From the NCBI GenBank assembly GCA_963734535.1, contig CAVTHS010000002.1, positions 229,551-293,550 on the forward strand: 64,000 bases of DNA. The letters are read 5' to 3'. How positions within the stretch are numbered: the first letter of the stretch is position 1; each line of letters begins with the position of its first letter. The translations under genes were made by a program, and so were the position numbers. Positions 10,466-55,495 of the stretch are shown piece by piece. Under the pieces are notes generated by a model. The model did no database searches. It was not told where the DNA came from and saw only the letters and a list, made by a program, of their open reading frames with translations. This DNA comes from an uncultured Chloroflexia bacterium (GTDB lineage: Bacteria; Chloroflexota; Limnocylindria; Limnocylindrales; CSP1-4).

Positions 10466-11884
10466 GTGACCGAACCCCAGCCCGACCCGAACGCCGTCGC
10501 GCCTTCCGTCGCGAACCTCGACGTCATCGTGAGCCTGGCGAAGCGCCGCGGCTTCGTCTTCCCCTCGTCGGAGATCTACGGCGGGATCAACGCCGTCTGG
10601 GACTACGGGCCGCTCGGTGTCGAGCTCAAGAACAACGTCAAGCGCGCCTGGTGGCGGGCCATGGTCCAGGAGCGTGACGACGTGGTTGGCGTCGACGCCG
10701 GGATCCTCATGCATCCGCAGGTGTGGGTGACCTCCGGCCACGTCGGGTCGTTCAGCGATCCGCTCGTGGAATGCGCCTCCTGCCGGCGACGCTACCGGCT
10801 CGACGAGCTGCCCGGCGCGGAGGAGCTCAGCCAGACCGACATCAAGGACCCGGAGATCGTCGACCGCCTGAAGCTGACCTGTCCGGCCGACGGCGGGAAG
10901 CTCTCGGCGCCGCGGCGCTTCAACCTGATGTTCAAGACGTACATGGGACCGGTCGAGGACGAGGCGGCGATCGTCTACCTCCGCCCGGAGACGGCCCAGG
11001 GCAGCTACGTCAACTTCAAGAACGTGCGTGAATCGACCCGCAAGAAGCTCCCCTTCGGGATCGCCCAGATCGGGAAGAGCTTCCGCAACGAGATCAGCCC
11101 GGGCAACTTCGTGTTCCGGATGCGCGAGTTCGAGCAGATGGAGATGCAGTACTTCGTCCGGCCGGGCGAGGGCGCCGCGACCGCGTTCGAGGAGTGGCTT
11201 CCGAAGCGCATGGCCTGGTACGAGGCCTACGGCGTCACTCGCTCCCGCCTGCGCTTCCGCGAGCACGCGCCCGACGAGCTGGCGCACTACGCGAAGAAGG
11301 CGATCGACGTCGAGTACCGGTTCCCATTCGGCTGGAAGGAGCTCGAGGGGATCCACAACCGCGGCGAATGGGACCTTGGCAACCACGCGAAGGCCTCCGG
11401 CGAGAACCTGGAGTACTTCGACCCGGCGACGGACGAGCATTTCATCCCCTGGGTCGTCGAGACGGCGGCCGGTGCCGATCGCGCCGCGTTCACCTTCCTG
11501 ATCGATGCCTATCGCGAGGAGGAGGTCCGCGGCGAGAAGCGGGTCGTGCTTGGAATCCACCCGGACCTCGCGCCGTACAAGGTCGCCGTGCTGCCGCTCC
11601 TCAAGAAGCGGCCCGAGATCGTGGAGCTGTGCCACCGGATCAAGGACGATCTCAAGCGGCAGACGATGGCCGTCTACGACGACACGGCCGCGATCGGCAA
11701 GCTCTACCGCCGCCAGGACGAGATCGGCACGCCGTGGTGCGTCACGGTCGACGTGGACTCGCTCGAGGACGGCAACGTCACGGTCCGCGACCGCGATGCG
11801 ATGACGCAGGAGCGGATCTCGGCCGGCCAGGTCACCCGTTACATCACCGACAAGCTCGACGAGGCGCGGCCCCGGGGCCTGTAG
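10466..11884 (+). CDS. glyQS: Glycine--tRNA ligase, alpha2 type
   Basis: KRRGFVFPSSEIYGG, YLRPETAQG, GKSFRNEISPGNFVFRMREFEQMEM, YRRQDEIGTP. Confidence 0.96.
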   Translation: MTEPQPDPNAVAPSVANLDVIVSLAKRRGFVFPSSEIYGGINAVWDYGPLGVELKNNVKRAWWRAMVQERDDVVGVDAGILMHPQVWVTSGHVGSFSDPLVECASCRRRYRLDELPGAEELSQTDIKDPEIVDRLKLTCPADGGKLSAPRRFNLMFKTYMGPVEDEAAIVYLRPETAQGSYVNFKNVRESTRKKLPFGIAQIGKSFRNEISPGNFVFRMREFEQMEMQYFVRPGEGAATAFEEWLPKRMAWYEAYGVTRSRLRFREHAPDELAHYAKKAIDVEYRFPFGWKELEGIHNRGEWDLGNHAKASGENLEYFDPATDEHFIPWVVETAAGADRAAFTFLIDAYREEEVRGEKRVVLGIHPDLAPYKVAVLPLLKKRPEIVELCHRIKDDLKRQTMAVYDDTAAIGKLYRRQDEIGTPWCVTVDVDSLEDGNVTVRDRDAMTQERISAGQVTRYITDKLDEARPRGL

Positions 11885-12017
11885 CCCAGCGCCGGGCAGG
11901 TCTCCCGGGGGAGCGGCACAGCGCGGTTCGAGGTCCGGGCCACGAAGGTCGGTCGGCGCCGGGGCGGACCTGGCGCCCGTGTCGGCACGCGTAAGGACGC
12001 GATACGCGACGCCGACG

Positions 12018-12187
12018 AGGATTCCCGACGCGGCATCGCGCGTACGCGCTGGGTACGCGGCAACGGCCAGGATTCCCGAACGTGGCATCGCGCGTAAGCG
12101 CTGGGTACGCGGCAACGGCCAGGATTCCCGACGTGGCATCGCGCGTAAGCGCTGGGTACGCGGCAACGGCCAGGATTCCCGACGTGG
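12018..12187. repeat. Left tandem array: about 3.3 copies of a 51-52-bp unit ending at the start of the HTH-nuclease gene
   Basis: Units start at 12018, 12069, 12121, 12172 (partial); consensus AGGATTCCCGACGTGGCATCGCGCGTAAGCGCTGGGTACGCGGCAACGGCC. Confidence 0.95.
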
Positions 12188-12927
12188 ATCCAATTCGACT
12201 CGGCCGCTCGCTCCGCGTCATCCGGCGCTCGCGCGGACTGCGGCAGCTCGACGTCGCGAAGGCTGGCGGCGTCTCGCAGACGCTGGTCTCGGCGATCGAG
12301 CGCGGCCATGGCCAGCATGTCGCCGTAGCGACGCTGGCGCGCGTGTTCGCCGCCCTCGACGCCGACGTCGAGCTCGTGGTGCGCTATCGCGGCGGGACGC
12401 TCGACCGGTTGCTCGACGAGCGCCATGCGGCGACAGTCGCAGCCGTGATGGCCACCCTGGGCGCACGCCGGTGGTTGACCGCCGCCGAAGTCACGTTCAA
12501 CCATTACGGCGAGCGTGGATCGATCGACGTCCTGGCGGTCCACCCGGTCGCGGGCATCGCCCTCGTCGTCGAGGTCAAGACCGAGATCACCTCGGCCGAG
12601 GAGACGCTGCGCCGCCTCGACGTCAAGGTCCGCCTCGGGGCCGGGCTCGCGCGGGAGCGGTTCCGCCTGCCGGTGACCCGCGTCGTTCCTCTCCTCGCGG
12701 TCCTCGACTCCACCGCCAACCGAAGCCGGGTCTCGCGTCTCGCGCCCCTGCTCGATCCTGCGTTCCCGAACCGATCGGCGGACCTGCGCCACTGGCTCGC
12801 GAACCCAGCGACGGCGCCCGGCGGGCTCCTTTTCGTCCGGATTTCGCGCGGTAGTGCTGGTGGTGCTGGTATGTCGGGATCGCACCGCGTTCGACGGCGG
12901 GTCACCGTTGTCGCCAGCCAGCCCTGA
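12184..12927 (+). CDS. XRE-family HTH domain fused to a PD-(D/E)xK restriction-endonuclease-like domain
   Basis: LRVIRRSRGLRQLDVAKAGGVSQTLVSAIERG (XRE HTH); EVTFNHYGERGSIDVLA...VVEVKTE (E..D..ExK); alternative in-frame GTG starts at 12082 and 12133 inside the repeats. Confidence 0.8.
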   Translation: MDPIRLGRSLRVIRRSRGLRQLDVAKAGGVSQTLVSAIERGHGQHVAVATLARVFAALDADVELVVRYRGGTLDRLLDERHAATVAAVMATLGARRWLTAAEVTFNHYGERGSIDVLAVHPVAGIALVVEVKTEITSAEETLRRLDVKVRLGAGLARERFRLPVTRVVPLLAVLDSTANRSRVSRLAPLLDPAFPNRSADLRHWLANPATAPGGLLFVRISRGSAGGAGMSGSHRVRRRVTVVASQP

Positions 12928-12979
12928 GCACGAATCGGGATTGGAGGGCGGGCATGAAGCCCACGATGGCATCGCGAGC

Positions 12980-13180
12980 CGCGCTTACCAGCACCGGGGG
13001 TGCTGCCGCGGGCGGGATGGGGACAGTCGGCGCGCTTACCAGCACCCGGAGTGCTGCCGCGGGCGGGACGCGGGCAGTGGCGCGCTTACCAGCACCGGGA
13101 GTGCTGCCGCGGGCGGGATTGGGACGCCGGCGCGCTTACCAGCACCGGGACTGCTGCCGCGGGCGGGACGCGGGCGCGCG
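12980..13180. repeat. Right tandem array: 4 copies of a 50-51-bp unit with an internal hairpin and a variable 12-13-nt segment
   Basis: Units at 12980, 13031, 13081, 13131; 38-nt core CGCGCTTACCAGCACCSGGRSTGCTGCCGCGGGCGGGA with CAGCAC/GTGCTG stem. Confidence 0.95.
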
Positions 13181-13224
13181 GCGCGCGGCGCACGCCACCA
13201 GCCGCGGCCCGCAGACGTCCCGGG

Positions 13225-14791
13225 TCAGCCCCCTGGGGTGGTTCCGGCCGTTGCCGCCGCCGGGGCGAGCGACGCCGCCGGGGCGAGCGACTCGTCCGTG
13301 GGTGGGTACTCGCCGCGCAGCCACGCGTCGACCGACGCCGCCGCGCGCTTGCCGTCGCCCATCGCGAGGATGACCGTGGCCGCCCCGCGCACGATGTCGC
13401 CGCCGGCGAAGACGCCCGGCAGCGACGACATCCCGTGCTCGTCGGTGACGATGTAGCCGGCCTGGTTGAGCGCGAGGTCCGGCTCGGATGCGGTCAGCAG
13501 CGGATTGGAGCGCGTCCCGATCGCGACCACGACCATCTCGCAATCGATGACGAACTCGGAGCCCTCGATCGGGATCGGGCGGCGCCTGCCGGACGCGTCG
13601 GGCTCGCCGAGCTCCATCCGGATGCAGCGGAGACCGGTCACCCAGCGGTTCTCGTCGGCCAGCACCTCGAGGGGCGCGACCTGCAGCTCGAAGCGGATTC
13701 CCTCCTGCTCCGCGTGGTGGACCTCCTCGGCCCGGGCGGGGAGCTCGGCCTTGCCGCGCCGGTAGACGATCGTCGCCTCGTCCGCGCCGAGCCGCTTCGC
13801 GGTCCGGACCGAATCCATGGCGACGTTTCCCCCTCCGACCACGACGACCCGGTGGCCCTTGAGGACCGGCGTGTCGGATTCGGGGTTCCAGGCGCCCATG
13901 AGATTGACGCGCGTCAGGTACTCGTTGGCCGAGTAGACGCCCTTGTAGTTCTCGCCGGGGACGTTCATGAATACCGGCAGGCCGGCGCCCACCGCCAGGA
14001 AGACGGCGTCGAACCGCTCGCGCAGCTCCCGCAGCGTGTACGTGCGCCCGATGATCGCGTTCGTCTCGATCTTCACGCCCGACGCCACCAGCCGGTCGAC
14101 CTCCTGCTGGACGATGTCCTTCGGGAGCCGGAACTCGGGAATTCCATAGATGAGGACACCGCCGGCCGCGTGGAACGCCTCGAACACCGTGACGTCGTGG
14201 CCCTGCTTCACGAGCTCGCCGGCCGCGGTCAGGCCGGCCGGCCCGGAGCCGACGACCGCGACCGAACGACCCGACGACGTCGGCGCGTTGGCCTTCGAGC
14301 GCGTCAGGGTGCTCCATCGCCCAGTCGGCCACGAAGCGCTCGAGGGAGCCGATGGCGACGGACGCACCCTTCTTCGAGCGAACGCAGCGACCCTCGCACT
14401 GGATCTCCTGGGGACAGACCCGGCCCGTCACGCACGGGAGCGCGTTGTCGTCGAGCAGCGAGGCCGCGGCGCCGTCCATGTCCCCGACGCGGAGCCGCTC
14501 GATGAAGAGCGGGATGTTCACCCGGACGGGGCACCCCTCGATGCAGACCGGGTTCTTGCACTGGAGGCAGCGCTCCGCCTCGAGCATGGCGAGCTGCTGC
14601 GAGTAGCCGAGGTTCACCTCGCGGAAATTGGCCGCGCGCAGGAGCGCGTCCTGCTCCGGCATGTGGCTCCGGTCGATGGTCATCCGCTCCTTGGGGGAAA
14701 GCGGGTGGTCGAACGCCGGGGTGAAGGTCGGGTCGCCGAGGGCCGCGTCCGGTTCCCCCATCCCGGAGGCCGGGGTCGGCTGGTCCGTCAT
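13225..14791 (-). CDS. nfnB: NfnB / GltD-like NADPH-dependent Fe-S flavoprotein (frameshift near 14295)
   Basis: EAERCLQCKNPVCIEGCPV and GRVCPQEIQCEGRC in one frame; VAVVGSGPAGL, YGIPEFRLPK, VVGGGNVAMD, FAGGDIVRGAATVILAM in the next; ATGA coupling to the nfnA-like gene. Confidence 0.82.
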
Positions 14792-29823: not shown

Positions 29824-31260
29824 ATGCGAGCCCCAACGGCTCGCCCGCTCCTCGTGCTCCTGCCGCTCGGGTTGGCGGCGCTGCTCGTCGGGGCTGGGGT
29901 GGCAGCGCTCACGGCCCCGTCGCCCCAGGCGCCCGGGCCGGGCGGCGGGAGCCCGTCGCCCGTCGCGGCGATCCAATCCGCGGCGCCCGCCTCGACGCTC
30001 CCGCCGCTCCCGCCGAGCACATCCCCAAGTGCGCAGGTCGGGACGCCGACCCCGAGCACGCAGATCGGGACCCCGACCCCGAGTGCGCAGGTCGGGACCC
30101 CGACCCCGAGCACGCAGATCGGGACCCCGACCCCGAGCGCGACCGCGACGCCCGCCTCAGCAGCCCCGAGCTCGTCGCCAGTGGCGTCACCCCCAGGGCC
30201 GGTGGCCGTCCCGCAGCACGATCCGGTGAAGTTCGGGTTCGCGGCGAAGGGGATGCGCGGCGAGGTGATGGCGTTCGCCACGATCCCGGAGATGGCCTAC
30301 GCTCGCGACACCCTGGACTTCTCGGCCGTCTCCACGCTCGTCTTCTTCAGCCTCCAGGCGGGGGCGGACGGTGCGCTCCTGCACGACTCCCGCTGGCGGG
30401 CCTGGAACGGATCGGTCTTCGACGCCGTGCGGGACCGGGCGCACGCTGCCGGGACGAGGGTCGTCGTGGCCGTGTCGCGCTTCTCGTGGTCACCGGACGA
30501 GACGGCGATCACCAGCGCGCTGCTCGGAAGCTCCGCGCATCAGCAACGGCTCGCCCGGGAGATCGCGGCAGAGGTGGTCCGGCGTGGGGTGGACGGCGTC
30601 AACGTCGATCTGGAGCCAGTTCCGGTGGGCCAGGCCGGCGCGTTCACGTCATTCGTGCGACGCCTCCGCACCGCGCTCGATGCGGCCGGTTCCGGCCTGC
30701 AGCTCACCGTGGCCATCACCGGCTACTACTCGTCCTACGACGTGCGCGGGCTGGTGGCGCCCGGCGCGGCCGATGCGATCTACCTGATGGGGTACCACTA
30801 CGCCGGGTGGTGGTCGAAGCGGGCCGGCTCCAACGCGCCCCTCGGCGGGGCGGGCTACGACGTGGCGGACACGATCGCGAAGCTTCGCGCGGACGGTGTC
30901 CCGGCGGAGCGGCTGATCGTTGGCGTCCCGTACTACGGGCACCTCTGGCCCACGGCGACCGGTGCGCTGAACGCGCCGACCGTCGGGCAGGGAAGCGACA
31001 TCCAGCTCGCGAACGGTCTCTCGATCCTCGCCACGGTCGCGGCCCACTGGGATCCGGTCCAGCGCGTGACGTGGGCCGCCTGGCGCGAGAACGGGACGTG
31101 GGTCCAGCTCTACCTCGACGACCCGCGAGCGCTCGCCGCGAAGTGGGCCCGATTCCGCGCGCTCGGCCTTCTCGGGACCGGGATGTGGACGATCGGGTTC
31201 GAGGGGCGCCCGGGCGAGGCGAACGCGGCGCTCCGCGAGGCATGGTTGACGGGTCCCTGA
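29824..31260 (+). CDS. Glycoside hydrolase family 18 protein
   Basis: VDGVNVDLE, YLMGYHY, LIVGVPYYG, GTGMWTIG; N-terminal TM or signal plus Pro/Thr linker. Confidence 0.82.
   Translation: MRAPTARPLLVLLPLGLAALLVGAGVAALTAPSPQAPGPGGGSPSPVAAIQSAAPASTLPPLPPSTSPSAQVGTPTPSTQIGTPTPSAQVGTPTPSTQIGTPTPSATATPASAAPSSSPVASPPGPVAVPQHDPVKFGFAAKGMRGEVMAFATIPEMAYARDTLDFSAVSTLVFFSLQAGADGALLHDSRWRAWNGSVFDAVRDRAHAAGTRVVVAVSRFSWSPDETAITSALLGSSAHQQRLAREIAAEVVRRGVDGVNVDLEPVPVGQAGAFTSFVRRLRTALDAAGSGLQLTVAITGYYSSYDVRGLVAPGAADAIYLMGYHYAGWWSKRAGSNAPLGGAGYDVADTIAKLRADGVPAERLIVGVPYYGHLWPTATGALNAPTVGQGSDIQLANGLSILATVAAHWDPVQRVTWAAWRENGTWVQLYLDDPRALAAKWARFRALGLLGTGMWTIGFEGRPGEANAALREAWLTGP
30025..30141 (+). repeat. Intragenic 27-bp tandem repeat x4 encoding PS(A/T)Q(V/I)GTPT
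   Basis: Two variants alternate, giving a 54-bp superunit present twice. Confidence 0.85.
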
Positions 31261-54867: not shown

Positions 54868-55495
54868 TCAGTGGTCGCTGCCGCCGCCACTGCCACCACC
54901 TGTGCCGCCCTTGTCGTCGAGGCTCGCGGCCGCCGCGGGGGTGGCCGTGCCGGCCGCGTCGTTGCCCTTGTCGTCTGGGCTCGCGGCCGGCTGGGCCGTC
55001 GCGGCCGCCGCGGGGGTGGCAGTGCCGGCCGCGTCGTTGCCCTTGTCGTCTGGGCTCGCGGTCGGGGAAACCGTTGCCTTCGCGGTGGGCGTCGCGGTTG
55101 CCGCGTCGTCGGTGCCCTTGCCGCCCTTGTCATCGGTGCTCGCGGCAGGCGAGCTCGTGGCCTTCGGGGAGGCGCCGTCATCGGAGCCCATTGCGCGGTC
55201 GTCGGGGCTCGCGGTCGGGGAGGCCGAGTCATCGGTGCCGTTGCCGCCGCGGTCGTCGCCGGGCTCGAGCGTGGGCGCGGCGCTCGCGGCGAGCTGCGTG
55301 GTCGTCGCCGGGCTCGAGCGTGGGCGCGGCGCTCGCGGCGAGGCGGTCGTCGGTCACGCTCGCCGACGGGCTGGCGGCCACCAGGCTGGGGTGGTCCTCG
55401 CGGGTCTGCTGCTCGCGGGCGAGGGCCACGCCGCCGAAGAGGAGGAGTCCGGAGGCCACCACCATCAGGGTCGTGGTCAGATTGCGTCGCGTCAT
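54868..55495 (-). CDS. Secreted low-complexity Asp-Asp repeat protein (frameshift near 55298)
   Basis: Signal peptide MTRRNLTTTLMVVASGLLLFGGVALA; repeats LAASAAPTLEPGDD and ASPDDKGNDAAGTATPAAAA; ends DDKGGTGGGSGGGSDH. Confidence 0.7.

Follow-up and report, generated by a model that had tools for sequence, protein, structure and literature searches.

Limnocylindria genes for an XRE helix-turn-helix/PD-(D/E)xK protein carry a hairpin repeat unit inside and behind their 3' ends: a possible nuclease-repeat partnership

In an uncultured soil Chloroflexota bacterium, the gene for a 247-amino acid (aa) protein, P0001, belongs to a family whose members are accompanied by a short hairpin-bearing DNA unit of their own. 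Copies of this unit are repeated in tandem behind the stop codon, an inverted copy that co-varies with them lies inside the 3' end of the coding sequence, and further copies are dispersed at sites that lack a family gene. The gene is located in a stretch of 64,000 nucleotides (hereafter, the window), C2:229551-293550 of the genome G000 (GCA_963734535.1, contig CAVTHS010000002.1), an assembly of 3.2 Mb in 14 contigs with 72% G+C and 90% completeness; other G numbers denote other genomes and L numbers denote loci. P0001 combines an XRE-type helix-turn-helix (HTH) with a predicted nuclease fold, and the locus may represent a repeat-nuclease partnership of the REPIN/RAYT kind built on a different class of nuclease, a reading to which a probability of about 0.45 is given and in which the binding, cleavage and propagation of the units by P0001 would constitute the mechanism.

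Tandem arrays are concentrated next to the genes of this family. Over 80 family loci, each taken with 6 kb on either side, arrays (period at least 20, score at least 80) cover 12.9% of the first 250 bp downstream and 6.7% of the first 250 bp upstream, 6.0% and 2.6%, respectively, between 250 and 500 bp, and at most 2% on either side beyond 500 bp. Arrays occur within 300 bp downstream of 24/76 family genes and 17/439 other genes (p 8e-12) and within 300 bp upstream of 13/77 and 22/513 (p 1.6e-4), although both p-values overstate the case because the loci are kin; whether the 300-bp flanks of homologs carry tandem repeats had been proposed as a check in a preliminary description of this DNA. 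The positions of the family genes in this test were taken from tblastn coordinates. The gene caller, based on the G+C content of third codon positions (GC3), found 15 of the 80 family genes and missed most of them because their GC3 is lower than that of their neighbours. For the P0001 gene, this caller gives a GC3 of 0.84 versus 0.94 (0.92-0.97) in the neighbours, which could mean low expression or foreign origin.

The repeats found on the 3' side share a common architecture. As read from the first 300 nt behind the stop codon at each of the 80 loci, the family unit measures ~36-40 bp and consists of a TA head, a hairpin or palindrome (often TAGCACC...GGTGC) and a purine-rich tail such as GGCAGGA. 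The stop codon is followed by one to four copies, spaced about 50 nt, the first of which often begins at the stop codon itself. In the window, the array to the right of the gene has TA heads at 12986, 13037, 13087 and 13137, each unit presenting a 6-bp hairpin (CAGCAC/GTGCTG) and a G-rich tail, and this unit (TACCAGCAC-loop-GTGCTG-G-rich tail) aligns without gaps with the family units. Homologous arrays follow the orthologs in G045, G010, G004, L177 and L178, that is, in several independent assemblies. A covariance model of the unit, R1, was built from 28 units chosen as seeds by a TA-plus-hairpin filter, and scores the four units of the window at 30-37 bits. Run on both strands of the 80 family loci (852,720 bases), R1 gives 80 matches at E <= 1. 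On the plus strand, 49 matches start at the stop codon or lie beyond it, and 21 of these are seeds. On the minus strand, 16 fall in the last ~170 nt of the gene, none of which is a seed, and one is downstream; five more are within 300 bp upstream (at 4/80 loci) and nine elsewhere. The arrays are subject to turnover, as seen in the metagenome contigs L177 and L178, which carry 80% orthologs, are near-identical in their flanks and have four and three units, respectively. Each of the three close paralogs in G000 has a different unit sequence, with extra copies for the P0001 type only.

The elements of the locus are the following, with coordinates of the window and the source of each in brackets.
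11898..13212 (approximate limits), no strand assigned: presence/absence insert between glyQS and nfnB, comprising leader, left array, gene and right array (spacer of G023 and contig of run X5)
12018..12187, plus strand: left array, 51 bp x3.3 (Tandem Repeats Finder, TRF; 96% matches, score 317)
12141..12163, plus strand: proximal copy of the family-wide upstream motif pair, GTAAGC followed one helical turn on by GGTACG, a putative operator/promoter element (motif census and orthologs)
12171..12176, plus strand: -10-like hexamer CAGGAT, 7 nt before the GTG (read by eye)
12184..12927, plus strand: gene for P0001, the 247-aa XRE-HTH/PD-(D/E)xK protein (open reading frame, translation, homologs, AlphaFold2)
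12196..12378, plus strand: XRE-type helix-turn-helix domain, residues 5-65 (Pfam, VIA-align)
12421..12843, plus strand: predicted PD-(D/E)xK nuclease-fold domain, residues ~80-220 (VIA-align, Foldseek, conservation)
12487-12489, 12526-12528, 12571-12573 and 12577-12579, plus strand: codons of the predicted catalytic residues E102, D115, E130 and K132, respectively (residue conservation)
12847..12871, minus strand: degenerate inverted copy of the downstream unit, in the coding DNA of a variable linker, residues 222-230 (inverted repeats I3-I5)
12926..12937, plus strand: conserved motif GAGCACGAATCG, overlapping the stop codon (search with pattern GAGCACGAWYCG)
12980..13173, plus strand: right array, four ~50-bp units (TRF, 50 bp x3.9, 87% matches, score 295; alternatively, two copies of a 100-bp unit)

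Between the two arrays there is a single open reading frame (ORF), which runs from a GTG at 12184 to 12927; a glycyl-tRNA synthetase gene of the glyQS type ends upstream at 11884 and a convergent nfnB/gltD-like gene has its stop codon at 13225. Arrays with a period of at least 30 and a score of at least 150 are rare in G000 (52 in 3.2 Mb), and two of them flank the P0001 gene. The preliminary description had reported this single gene between two ~50-bp arrays, its position between glyQS and nfnB and the recurrence of TGGCATCGCG at 12967 (family D3), all of which are found again. It had also held that the two arrays share motifs in opposite orientation, which fails. Their best local alignment scores 18 in direct and 17 in inverted orientation, compared with 17.0 +/- 3.1 and 16.2 +/- 2.7 in 500 dinucleotide-preserving shuffles, 26% of which reach the observed inverted score, and the idea that left and right arrays are inverted copies of each other is rejected, with similarity at shuffle level. 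The 8-mer said to be shared by the arrays (GCGCTTAC/GTAAGCGC) is real, and its left copy belongs to the family-wide upstream motif, but in the right array it is no more than expected by chance. The picture of a gene bracketed by two inverted arrays finds no support: the left array consists of three copies of a promoter/start region and bears no relation to the right array, whose inverted partner is to be found within the gene.

This true inverted partner of the downstream units lies in the 3' coding DNA of the gene and co-varies with them locus by locus, although it is weak in the window. When the last ~160 nt of each gene were aligned with the reverse-complemented 270 nt that follow the same gene, and with the downstream regions of other loci as a control, the own-locus score had a median of 23 versus 19 across loci (Mann-Whitney p 4e-15), and 26/75 loci exceeded the cross-locus 95th percentile, versus 9/75 without reverse complement. 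The arms are 25-37 nt long, wholly different between loci and matching within a locus. The minus-strand R1 matches sit in the DNA that encodes a variable, low-confidence linker between the last conserved strand and a conserved basic tail, and the in-gene arm and the downstream units make up a module of inverted repeats that encloses the stop codon and the DNA for this C-terminal tail. In the window, inverted repeats I3-I5 span 25 nt and are 72-76% complementary to units 2-4 (19/25 for units 2-3); the in-gene arm of the L177 ortholog is clearer (22/28).

Such complementarity might act at the level of RNA, either because the arrays are transcribed together with the gene and cut into unit RNAs that act on the nuclease, as in type III toxin-antitoxin systems, or because the in-gene arm pairs with the units of the 3' untranslated region in the mRNA. 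A tandem hairpin array does adjoin a nuclease gene, four of the six arm-unit mismatches in the window would be G-U pairs in the sense RNA, and the orthologous unit of G010 keeps its stem by means of a G-U pair. Across 41 loci, however, the mismatches between arms comprise 89 G-U versus 76 A-C (p = 0.35), fold energies are no better than those of shuffles (z -0.1, -1.1, +1.1), no Rfam match reaches its gathering score (the sole match, SECIS_3, has 18 bits versus 63 for gathering) and stem positions 7-23 are often C-A on the sense strand. Because G-U and A-C mismatches are balanced and nothing points to the sense RNA, the pairing of the arms is read as a DNA-level feature. An array-derived-RNA system, which had been one of the initial proposals for this locus, is very unlikely.

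The same module could also work as an invertible switch, in which recombination between the in-gene unit and a downstream unit would flip the segment that encodes the basic C-terminal tail and turn the protein on or off. In many members, the stop codon and the DNA for the tail lie between inverted repeats of about 25-35 bp that are 80-200 bp apart, and several downstream copies would offer several end points. Against this, there is no strand-change joint among 15 of the 41 joints, those listed, from four sequencing runs (Logan contigs, in which minor forms are hidden), the orientation is the same in all orthologs examined, the DNA between units is not long enough to code for other tails and no recombinase gene stands beside family genes. 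The Logan contigs cover the region patchily and can neither confirm array copy numbers nor exclude inversions. A switch of this kind is most unlikely, and even the RNA and inversion readings taken jointly remain improbable.

Units of the P0001 type are also present in G000 without the gene; a search for dispersed copies had been among the checks proposed in the preliminary description. They occur at three loci, C3:359520-359609 (hisA / fusA-like), C8:363076-363215 (USP / CoA-transferase) and C10 about 285300-285480, near none of which a gene was found by the hidden Markov model (HMM) of the family. These copies emerged with profile and covariance searches, a blastn-short search for exact dispersed copies having returned the arrays themselves only. 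At the C3 and C8 sites of G000 and at G045:C14, the whole 3' module is recognisable, including the inverted arm, GAGCACGAATCG and the units. The motif GAGCACGAATCG, which overlaps the stop codon of the gene, is thus kept in gene-less 3' modules, and the pattern GAGCACGAWYCG matches the orthologs, the hisA-fusA site (G000, G023, G045), the USP-ctb site (G000) and G045:C14. At the hisA locus itself (L139:638-1393 = G000 C3:358637-359392), a wrong-frame translation of hisA is open for 252 codons, a frame recovered in two relatives; open frames in DNA of 72% G+C, even conserved ones, say little.

In five other genomes, R1 gives 46 matches at E <= 0.01. Of these, 12 adjoin exactly one family gene per genome, the one that is the best match of that genome to the family profile, and 34 are found at 24 gene-less loci, six of which show a minus/plus pair separated by 110-200 bp, as in the 3' module of the gene itself. 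In one solo locus, the alignment with the master gene extends from the in-gene arm (-125) to +75, and other solo loci share only the ~35-nt unit. Chance matches to R1 are rare, since 31/42 genomes of the genus have no match at E <= 0.01 with 150 candidates scored in each. Two or more matches are present in 6/9 occupied versus 0/16 empty genomes, a comparison that is not leaned on, as gene-adjacent units count trivially and 150 candidates were scored in each genome. At the USP-ctb site, arrays are intact in G000 (3 units), G045 (4) and G010 (3), all of which have a P0001 ortholog. Among genomes that lack one, G022 and G053 have degenerate arrays and G023 has a deletion of them; at this site, G022 and G023 are the nearest to G000 (100% and 99% versus 98% and 96%). 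With six genomes, the impression that the state of the array follows the presence of the ortholog is only suggestive. The idea that a family gene was lost from the USP-ctb site is rejected, as none of the 30 loci of relatives has one there.

The gene itself is dispensable and, on the best explanation, vertically inherited. Among 30 loci of the genus examined around the 3' end of glyQS, the family gene is present between glyQS and nfnB in eight (G000, G045, G051, G003, G010, G048, G008 and G004) and reduced to its first 32 codons in one (G006), glyQS directly adjoins nfnB in 16, the empty site for which a comparison of relatives had been proposed, and neither state was within reach in five; the site is likewise occupied in G021. 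In G023, the closest relative by GlyQS (92% identity), a spacer of 26 bp separates the two stop codons and contains no unit-like target, and an empty-type joint is also seen in a contig of run X5, which connects 11897 to 13273. Broken orthologs exist in three relatives, frameshifted in G003 (L121/L182) and G051 (L114) and split into pieces in G011:C10:49684-50182, which reflects either the decay of a dispensable gene or errors in the assembly of metagenome-assembled genomes (MAGs). The resident proteins are 82, 84, 74, 73, 60, 56 and 52% identical to P0001 where the GlyQS proteins of the same genomes are 81, 76, 78, 75, 70, 73 and 69% identical. Protein identity declines approximately in step with GlyQS identity, a trend that is better accounted for by old vertical inheritance and repeated loss than by recent homing. 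At the G006 site (L125, locus 2554-2764), a 21-bp x3.5 array immediately precedes the relic of 32 codons, a 5' remnant that contrasts with the 3' relics found elsewhere.

Gene and repeats might also have no functional link, the units being an independent REP/MITE-like family (MITE, miniature inverted-repeat transposable element) or variable number tandem repeats (VNTRs) that are moved or expanded by host functions and tolerated in slack intergenic DNA near dispensable genes. Arrays with a 50-bp period are indeed also present in long intergenic regions without a family gene (C3, C6:113579, C8), the USP-ctb site has a family gene in 0/30 loci of relatives, family genes are solitary with spacers of 100-500 bp on both sides, and the copy number varies as in VNTRs. 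Tolerance fails to explain, however, the in-gene unit at the same position of the protein (16 model matches), and it leaves unexplained the frequent start of the first unit at the stop codon, the locus-by-locus co-variation of the arms and the fact that, in five genomes, gene-adjacent units are always beside the same ortholog. The absence of any link is considered unlikely.

Other arrays deserve mention in their own right. In G000, further intergenic arrays, whose period is likewise about 50 bp (42-59) but whose units have other sequences, are located at C6:113261-113738, C8:362849-363026, C8:363503-363687 and C13:29057-29173, and a period of ~50 bp seems to be typical of the intergenic arrays of the lineage. 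The other sizeable arrays of the window lie at 30023-30141 (54 bp x2.2, with a 27-bp subunit x4) and 54924-55120 (75 bp x2.6), according to TRF. The closest paralog of P0001 (G000 C8:88048-89250) has ~137 codons beyond the family domain before its stop codon, at which the first downstream unit starts, and a cluster of six arrays within 13 kb is located downstream of this gene.

Regarding the protein, P0001 belongs to the XRE family of helix-turn-helix proteins and, as the preliminary description had read from its translation, pairs this domain with an E..D..ExK motif. Pfam recognises the XRE HTH alone, at residues 5-65, with three models above their cut-offs over residues 5-67, i.e. HTH_31 (E 5e-8; 33.5 bits, cut-off 27), HTH_3 (31.2 bits, cut-off 23) and HTH_37 (27.6 bits, cut-off 27). 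The closest structural neighbours of this domain by VIA-align are C.AhdI (Z 11.4, 62 residues, root mean square deviation (rmsd) 1.6) and HigA2 (Z 11.2). The C-terminal domain has no match among Pfam, NCBIfam or PADLOC models, and the defence-system models match P0001 in its HTH only; a sequence search of solved structures returns HTH proteins only, to which a profile adds one weak match to a restriction endonuclease (E 9e-4), and a search of the ESM Atlas returns only unnamed Chloroflexota clusters. The AlphaFold2 model (mean predicted local distance difference test score 89, predicted template modelling score 0.69) presents the HTH, a long helix and an alpha-beta-beta-beta-alpha-beta core, made up of helix 69-94, strands 98-107, 110-120 and 125-132, helix 138-160 and strand 166-174. 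Residues ~80-220 align with the nuclease domain of Upx (9wuf; Z 10.0, 116 residues aligned, rmsd 3.0), AF1548 (1y88; 9.3), NucS (2vld; 8.7), VC1899 (8.5) and Can2 (8.4), and Foldseek matches the C-terminal half to the restriction-like endonuclease of the R2 element, SduA and XisH (E 1e-4). In 49 aligned family members, H81, E102, G112, D115, E130, K148 and R150 are invariant and K132 is conserved in at least 90%, and E102, D115, E130 and K132 are placed on strands 1-3 of the model. Both the core fold and the E-D-ExK set of PD-(D/E)xK nucleases are therefore present, and the C-terminal half is, as modelled, a PD-(D/E)xK nuclease fold with an intact E-D-ExK set, which also agrees with the initial assignment and makes P0001 a putative nuclease.

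The family comprises 223 cluster representatives at E <= 1e-30 and 1988 at E <= 0.001, part of the latter being reached via the HTH alone. By record titles, nearly all its loci are from Limnocylindrales/Limnocylindria, Chloroflexota or uncultured Chloroflexia MAGs, and matches are found in 23/24 genomes of the genus versus 0/16 of the sister family. G000 has eight paralogs, three close (44% and 39% identity to P0001) and five distant. Family genes stand alone, with 100-500-bp spacers on both sides and no recombinase, partner toxin, methylase or endonuclease gene adjoining them. Pfam finds no Y1_Tnp match in P0001, and no HUH/Y1 transposase (PF01797) was found in the 90%-complete G000, as had been noted for the window, by a search that was positive in 6/14 control genomes.

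On the 5' side, the repeats are of a different nature. The 51-bp unit of the left array contains the upstream motif pair, the -10-like hexamer and the GTG, in three in-frame copies (GTG at 12082, 12133 and 12184), and the ORF is open throughout the array because 51 bp correspond to 17 codons. The orthologs in G045, G003, G010, G051 and L177-L179 have a single copy of the upstream segment and no array, and the left array was seen in this assembly alone. From this sequence comparison, it is probably a recent, species-specific threefold tandem duplication of the promoter/operator-like region of the gene including its start, an event separate from the right array. The underlying motif, [GA]TAAG[CT], has 44 forward and 0 reverse matches in the 100 bp upstream of the 80 family genes (35/80 loci), a density of 5.5 per kb versus about 0.03 per kb in distant flanks, and is often doubled, with copies about 11 bp apart, at roughly -50 to -25. 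It is scarce downstream (5 forward and 2 reverse matches in 7.9 kb). In most of 47 upstream regions read by eye, a NANNNT hexamer stands 7-8 nt before the start codon, a position that suggests a leaderless transcript; a scan for sigma-70 consensus promoters gave zero matches. The upstream arrays of other members (L039, L046, L049, L031) are amplified 11-bp versions of the upstream motif, which suggests that the protein or its regulator also binds this motif. A genome-wide search for the motif pair with a loose pattern gave 145 matches, among which few strict double-TAAGC sites stand out. Strict double TAAGC copies away from family paralogs are found at G000 C2:154434-154449, C3:89963-89980 and C7:27684-27701 and may be further targets of the motif-binding factor, or chance. 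GGTAAGC is also present within the C6:113469 region of G000.

These features raise the question of whether P0001 is instead chiefly a repressor, an autoregulated transcription factor for which the upstream motif would be the operator, the downstream units extra sites or a 3' terminator/stabiliser, and the gene-less clusters the regulon. Replication slippage where DNA is bound or forms hairpins would then make the arrays grow, and the role of the nuclease fold would be in oligomerisation or sensing. The HTH is closest to C-proteins, HipB and HigA, all of which are autoregulators, the upstream motif is strictly oriented and positioned and is tandemly amplified in L039, L046 and L049, the core of the unit is palindromic, like the sites of dimeric HTH proteins, and the genes are conserved in position and not mobile. 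The invariant E-D-ExK set argues, however, for an active nuclease, and an operator placed in the coding DNA of its own gene and co-varying with downstream copies would be unusual for a repressor. Moreover, the upstream motif is barely present where the units are, and a scan for intrinsic terminators gave zero matches. A chiefly regulatory role is regarded as rather improbable.

The preferred reading remains that of a repeat-nuclease partnership. P0001 would recognise its units and cut or recombine at them, and repair would duplicate the units, keep them alike and occasionally copy them elsewhere; arrays, inverted pairs and solo copies would be the outcome of such cutting and repair, as has been proposed for RAYT on REP/REPIN. 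A more specific version, in which a domesticated XRE-HTH/PD-(D/E)xK nuclease recognises the hairpin unit in the 3' end of its own gene and copies the unit or the module by cutting and templated repair into tandem arrays and to new places between genes, each paralog keeping a small repeat population in a symbiosis independent of HUH enzymes, is doubtful. Of the repeat-associated nuclease system first imagined for the locus, the family-linked repeats, the dispersed copies and the nuclease fold have stood, and the two inverted flanking arrays have not.

Several observations weigh against the partnership. Concerning the arrays, 52/76 family loci have none within 300 bp downstream, and the other genes used as a control came from the same loci by means of a crude GC3-based caller, the flanks near the family gene being left out. 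The clear inverted repeat is limited to 26/75 family loci, the five more distant G000 paralogs show no inverted repeat, and the in-gene copy of the window is degenerate, with a strict alignment score of 20 that is not above the cross-locus control. Pair counts on the R1 seeds are circular because the seeds had passed the TA-plus-hairpin filter. In the genome scans with R1, 150 candidates were scored per genome, of several thousand, and degenerate units visible by eye in G023 were missed. The copies at G045:C14 and at the USP-ctb site of G000 may be truncated or decayed paralogs, because they continue upstream into sequence like the last ~75 codons of the gene. G000 contains about a dozen units at four loci, versus hundreds for REPINs, the related genomes are not independent of each other, and the upstream motif differs from the downstream unit, so that it is not obvious that a single HTH would bind both.

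The anatomy is well established and, within the reach of the literature search, undescribed: no paper joining Limnocylindria and tandem repeats was found, and there was nothing relevant on XRE- or nuclease-linked intergenic repeats in Chloroflexota among the matches listed. REP/REPIN sequences are the textbook repeats maintained by a dedicated enzyme and, to our knowledge, the HUH-type RAYT is the only enzyme in that part. If the partnership is real, repeat-nuclease partnerships would have arisen more than once, and a 247-aa protein with a ~40-bp site would offer a compact testable system in an abundant uncultured soil lineage. It would also explain the odd 50-bp intergenic arrays of these genomes and would represent a rare case of a DNA element that is embedded in, and shapes, the coding sequence of its own enzyme. 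Even if the role is regulatory, the upstream motif and the 3' module would constitute a new, widespread set of cis-elements in Limnocylindria.

In comparison with known repeat systems, the right array is unlike CRISPR arrays, since its units are joined directly in head-to-tail order, with 10-15 bases that vary and without spacers, and P0001 has no defence-system match beyond the HTH. In ToxIN, a type III toxin-antitoxin system, the ToxI repeats, of about 36 nt, are upstream of the toxin gene and the fold of ToxN is different. The likeness resides in tandem hairpin-bearing repeats that adjoin a nuclease gene, but here the arrays are downstream, an inverted copy lies in the gene and the fold and G-U tests give no RNA signal. 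VNTRs of the mycobacterial MIRU type are tandem intergenic repeats of 40-100 bp whose copy number varies between strains. They resemble the present arrays in their intergenic location and copy-number variation (L177 versus L178), as well as in the left unit being a multiple of 3 and in frame, and differ in the tie of the present repeats to a single gene family and in the inverted copy within the gene. Free-standing homing endonuclease genes show presence/absence at a fixed site, keep an intact target that can be recognised in alleles lacking the gene and have recently spread horizontally. For the P0001 gene, empty and occupied alleles exist; its divergence, however, tracks that of GlyQS, and no unit-like target is seen in the empty spacer.

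As for the two halves of the protein, the PD-(D/E)xK nucleases (Upx 9wuf, AF1548, NucS/EndoMS, Can2/Card1, Shedu SduA and R2) share with P0001 the core fold (Z 8.4-10.0 over 100-116 residues) and E-D-ExK in the usual places, with a sequence identity of only 12-19%, and we know of none of these enzymes that is tied to a cognate repeat family. The XRE autoregulators (C.AhdI, HipB/HigA) are the best match of the N-terminal domain (Z 10-11.4; E 1e-10 to 1e-6) and have an oriented, repeated upstream motif in common with the family. They differ in that the HTH is here fused to a nuclease fold, with no partner toxin, methylase or endonuclease gene adjoining, and in the layout of the upstream motif, whose copies stand about 11 bp apart in direct orientation, whereas the C-box of controller proteins has an inverted layout. 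An autoregulating XRE protein accounts for the upstream motif and leaves the in-gene copy and the invariant catalytic set unexplained.

The system that comes closest in organisation is REPIN-RAYT, in which a nuclease gene that stays in place and is inherited vertically has palindromic repeats of its own type on its flanks, and these repeats are dispersed as doublets and tandem clusters (PMC3337134). The likeness extends to a small nuclease gene with its own short palindromic repeat, each gene copy having its own repeat type, to the dispersal of the repeat in intergenic DNA as singles, inverted doublets and tandem clusters (far fewer here), and to a gene that is fixed in position and inherited vertically rather than jumping. 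The differences concern the enzyme, XRE HTH plus PD-(D/E)xK in P0001 and not an HUH/Y1 protein related to IS200 TnpA, the number of units, about a dozen and not hundreds, and their arrangement. One arm lies here inside the coding region, and there are direct-repeat arrays with a ~50-bp period and several paralogs per genome. As to repeats on the flanks of the gene, cognate units are found on the 3' side and within the 3' coding end, with R1 matches in the 300 bp upstream at 4/80 loci. Since the defining HUH/Y1 enzyme class was found neither in P0001 nor in the 90%-complete G000 and copy numbers are an order of magnitude or more lower, the locus is not a member of the REPIN-RAYT systems but, by analogy, may work like one.

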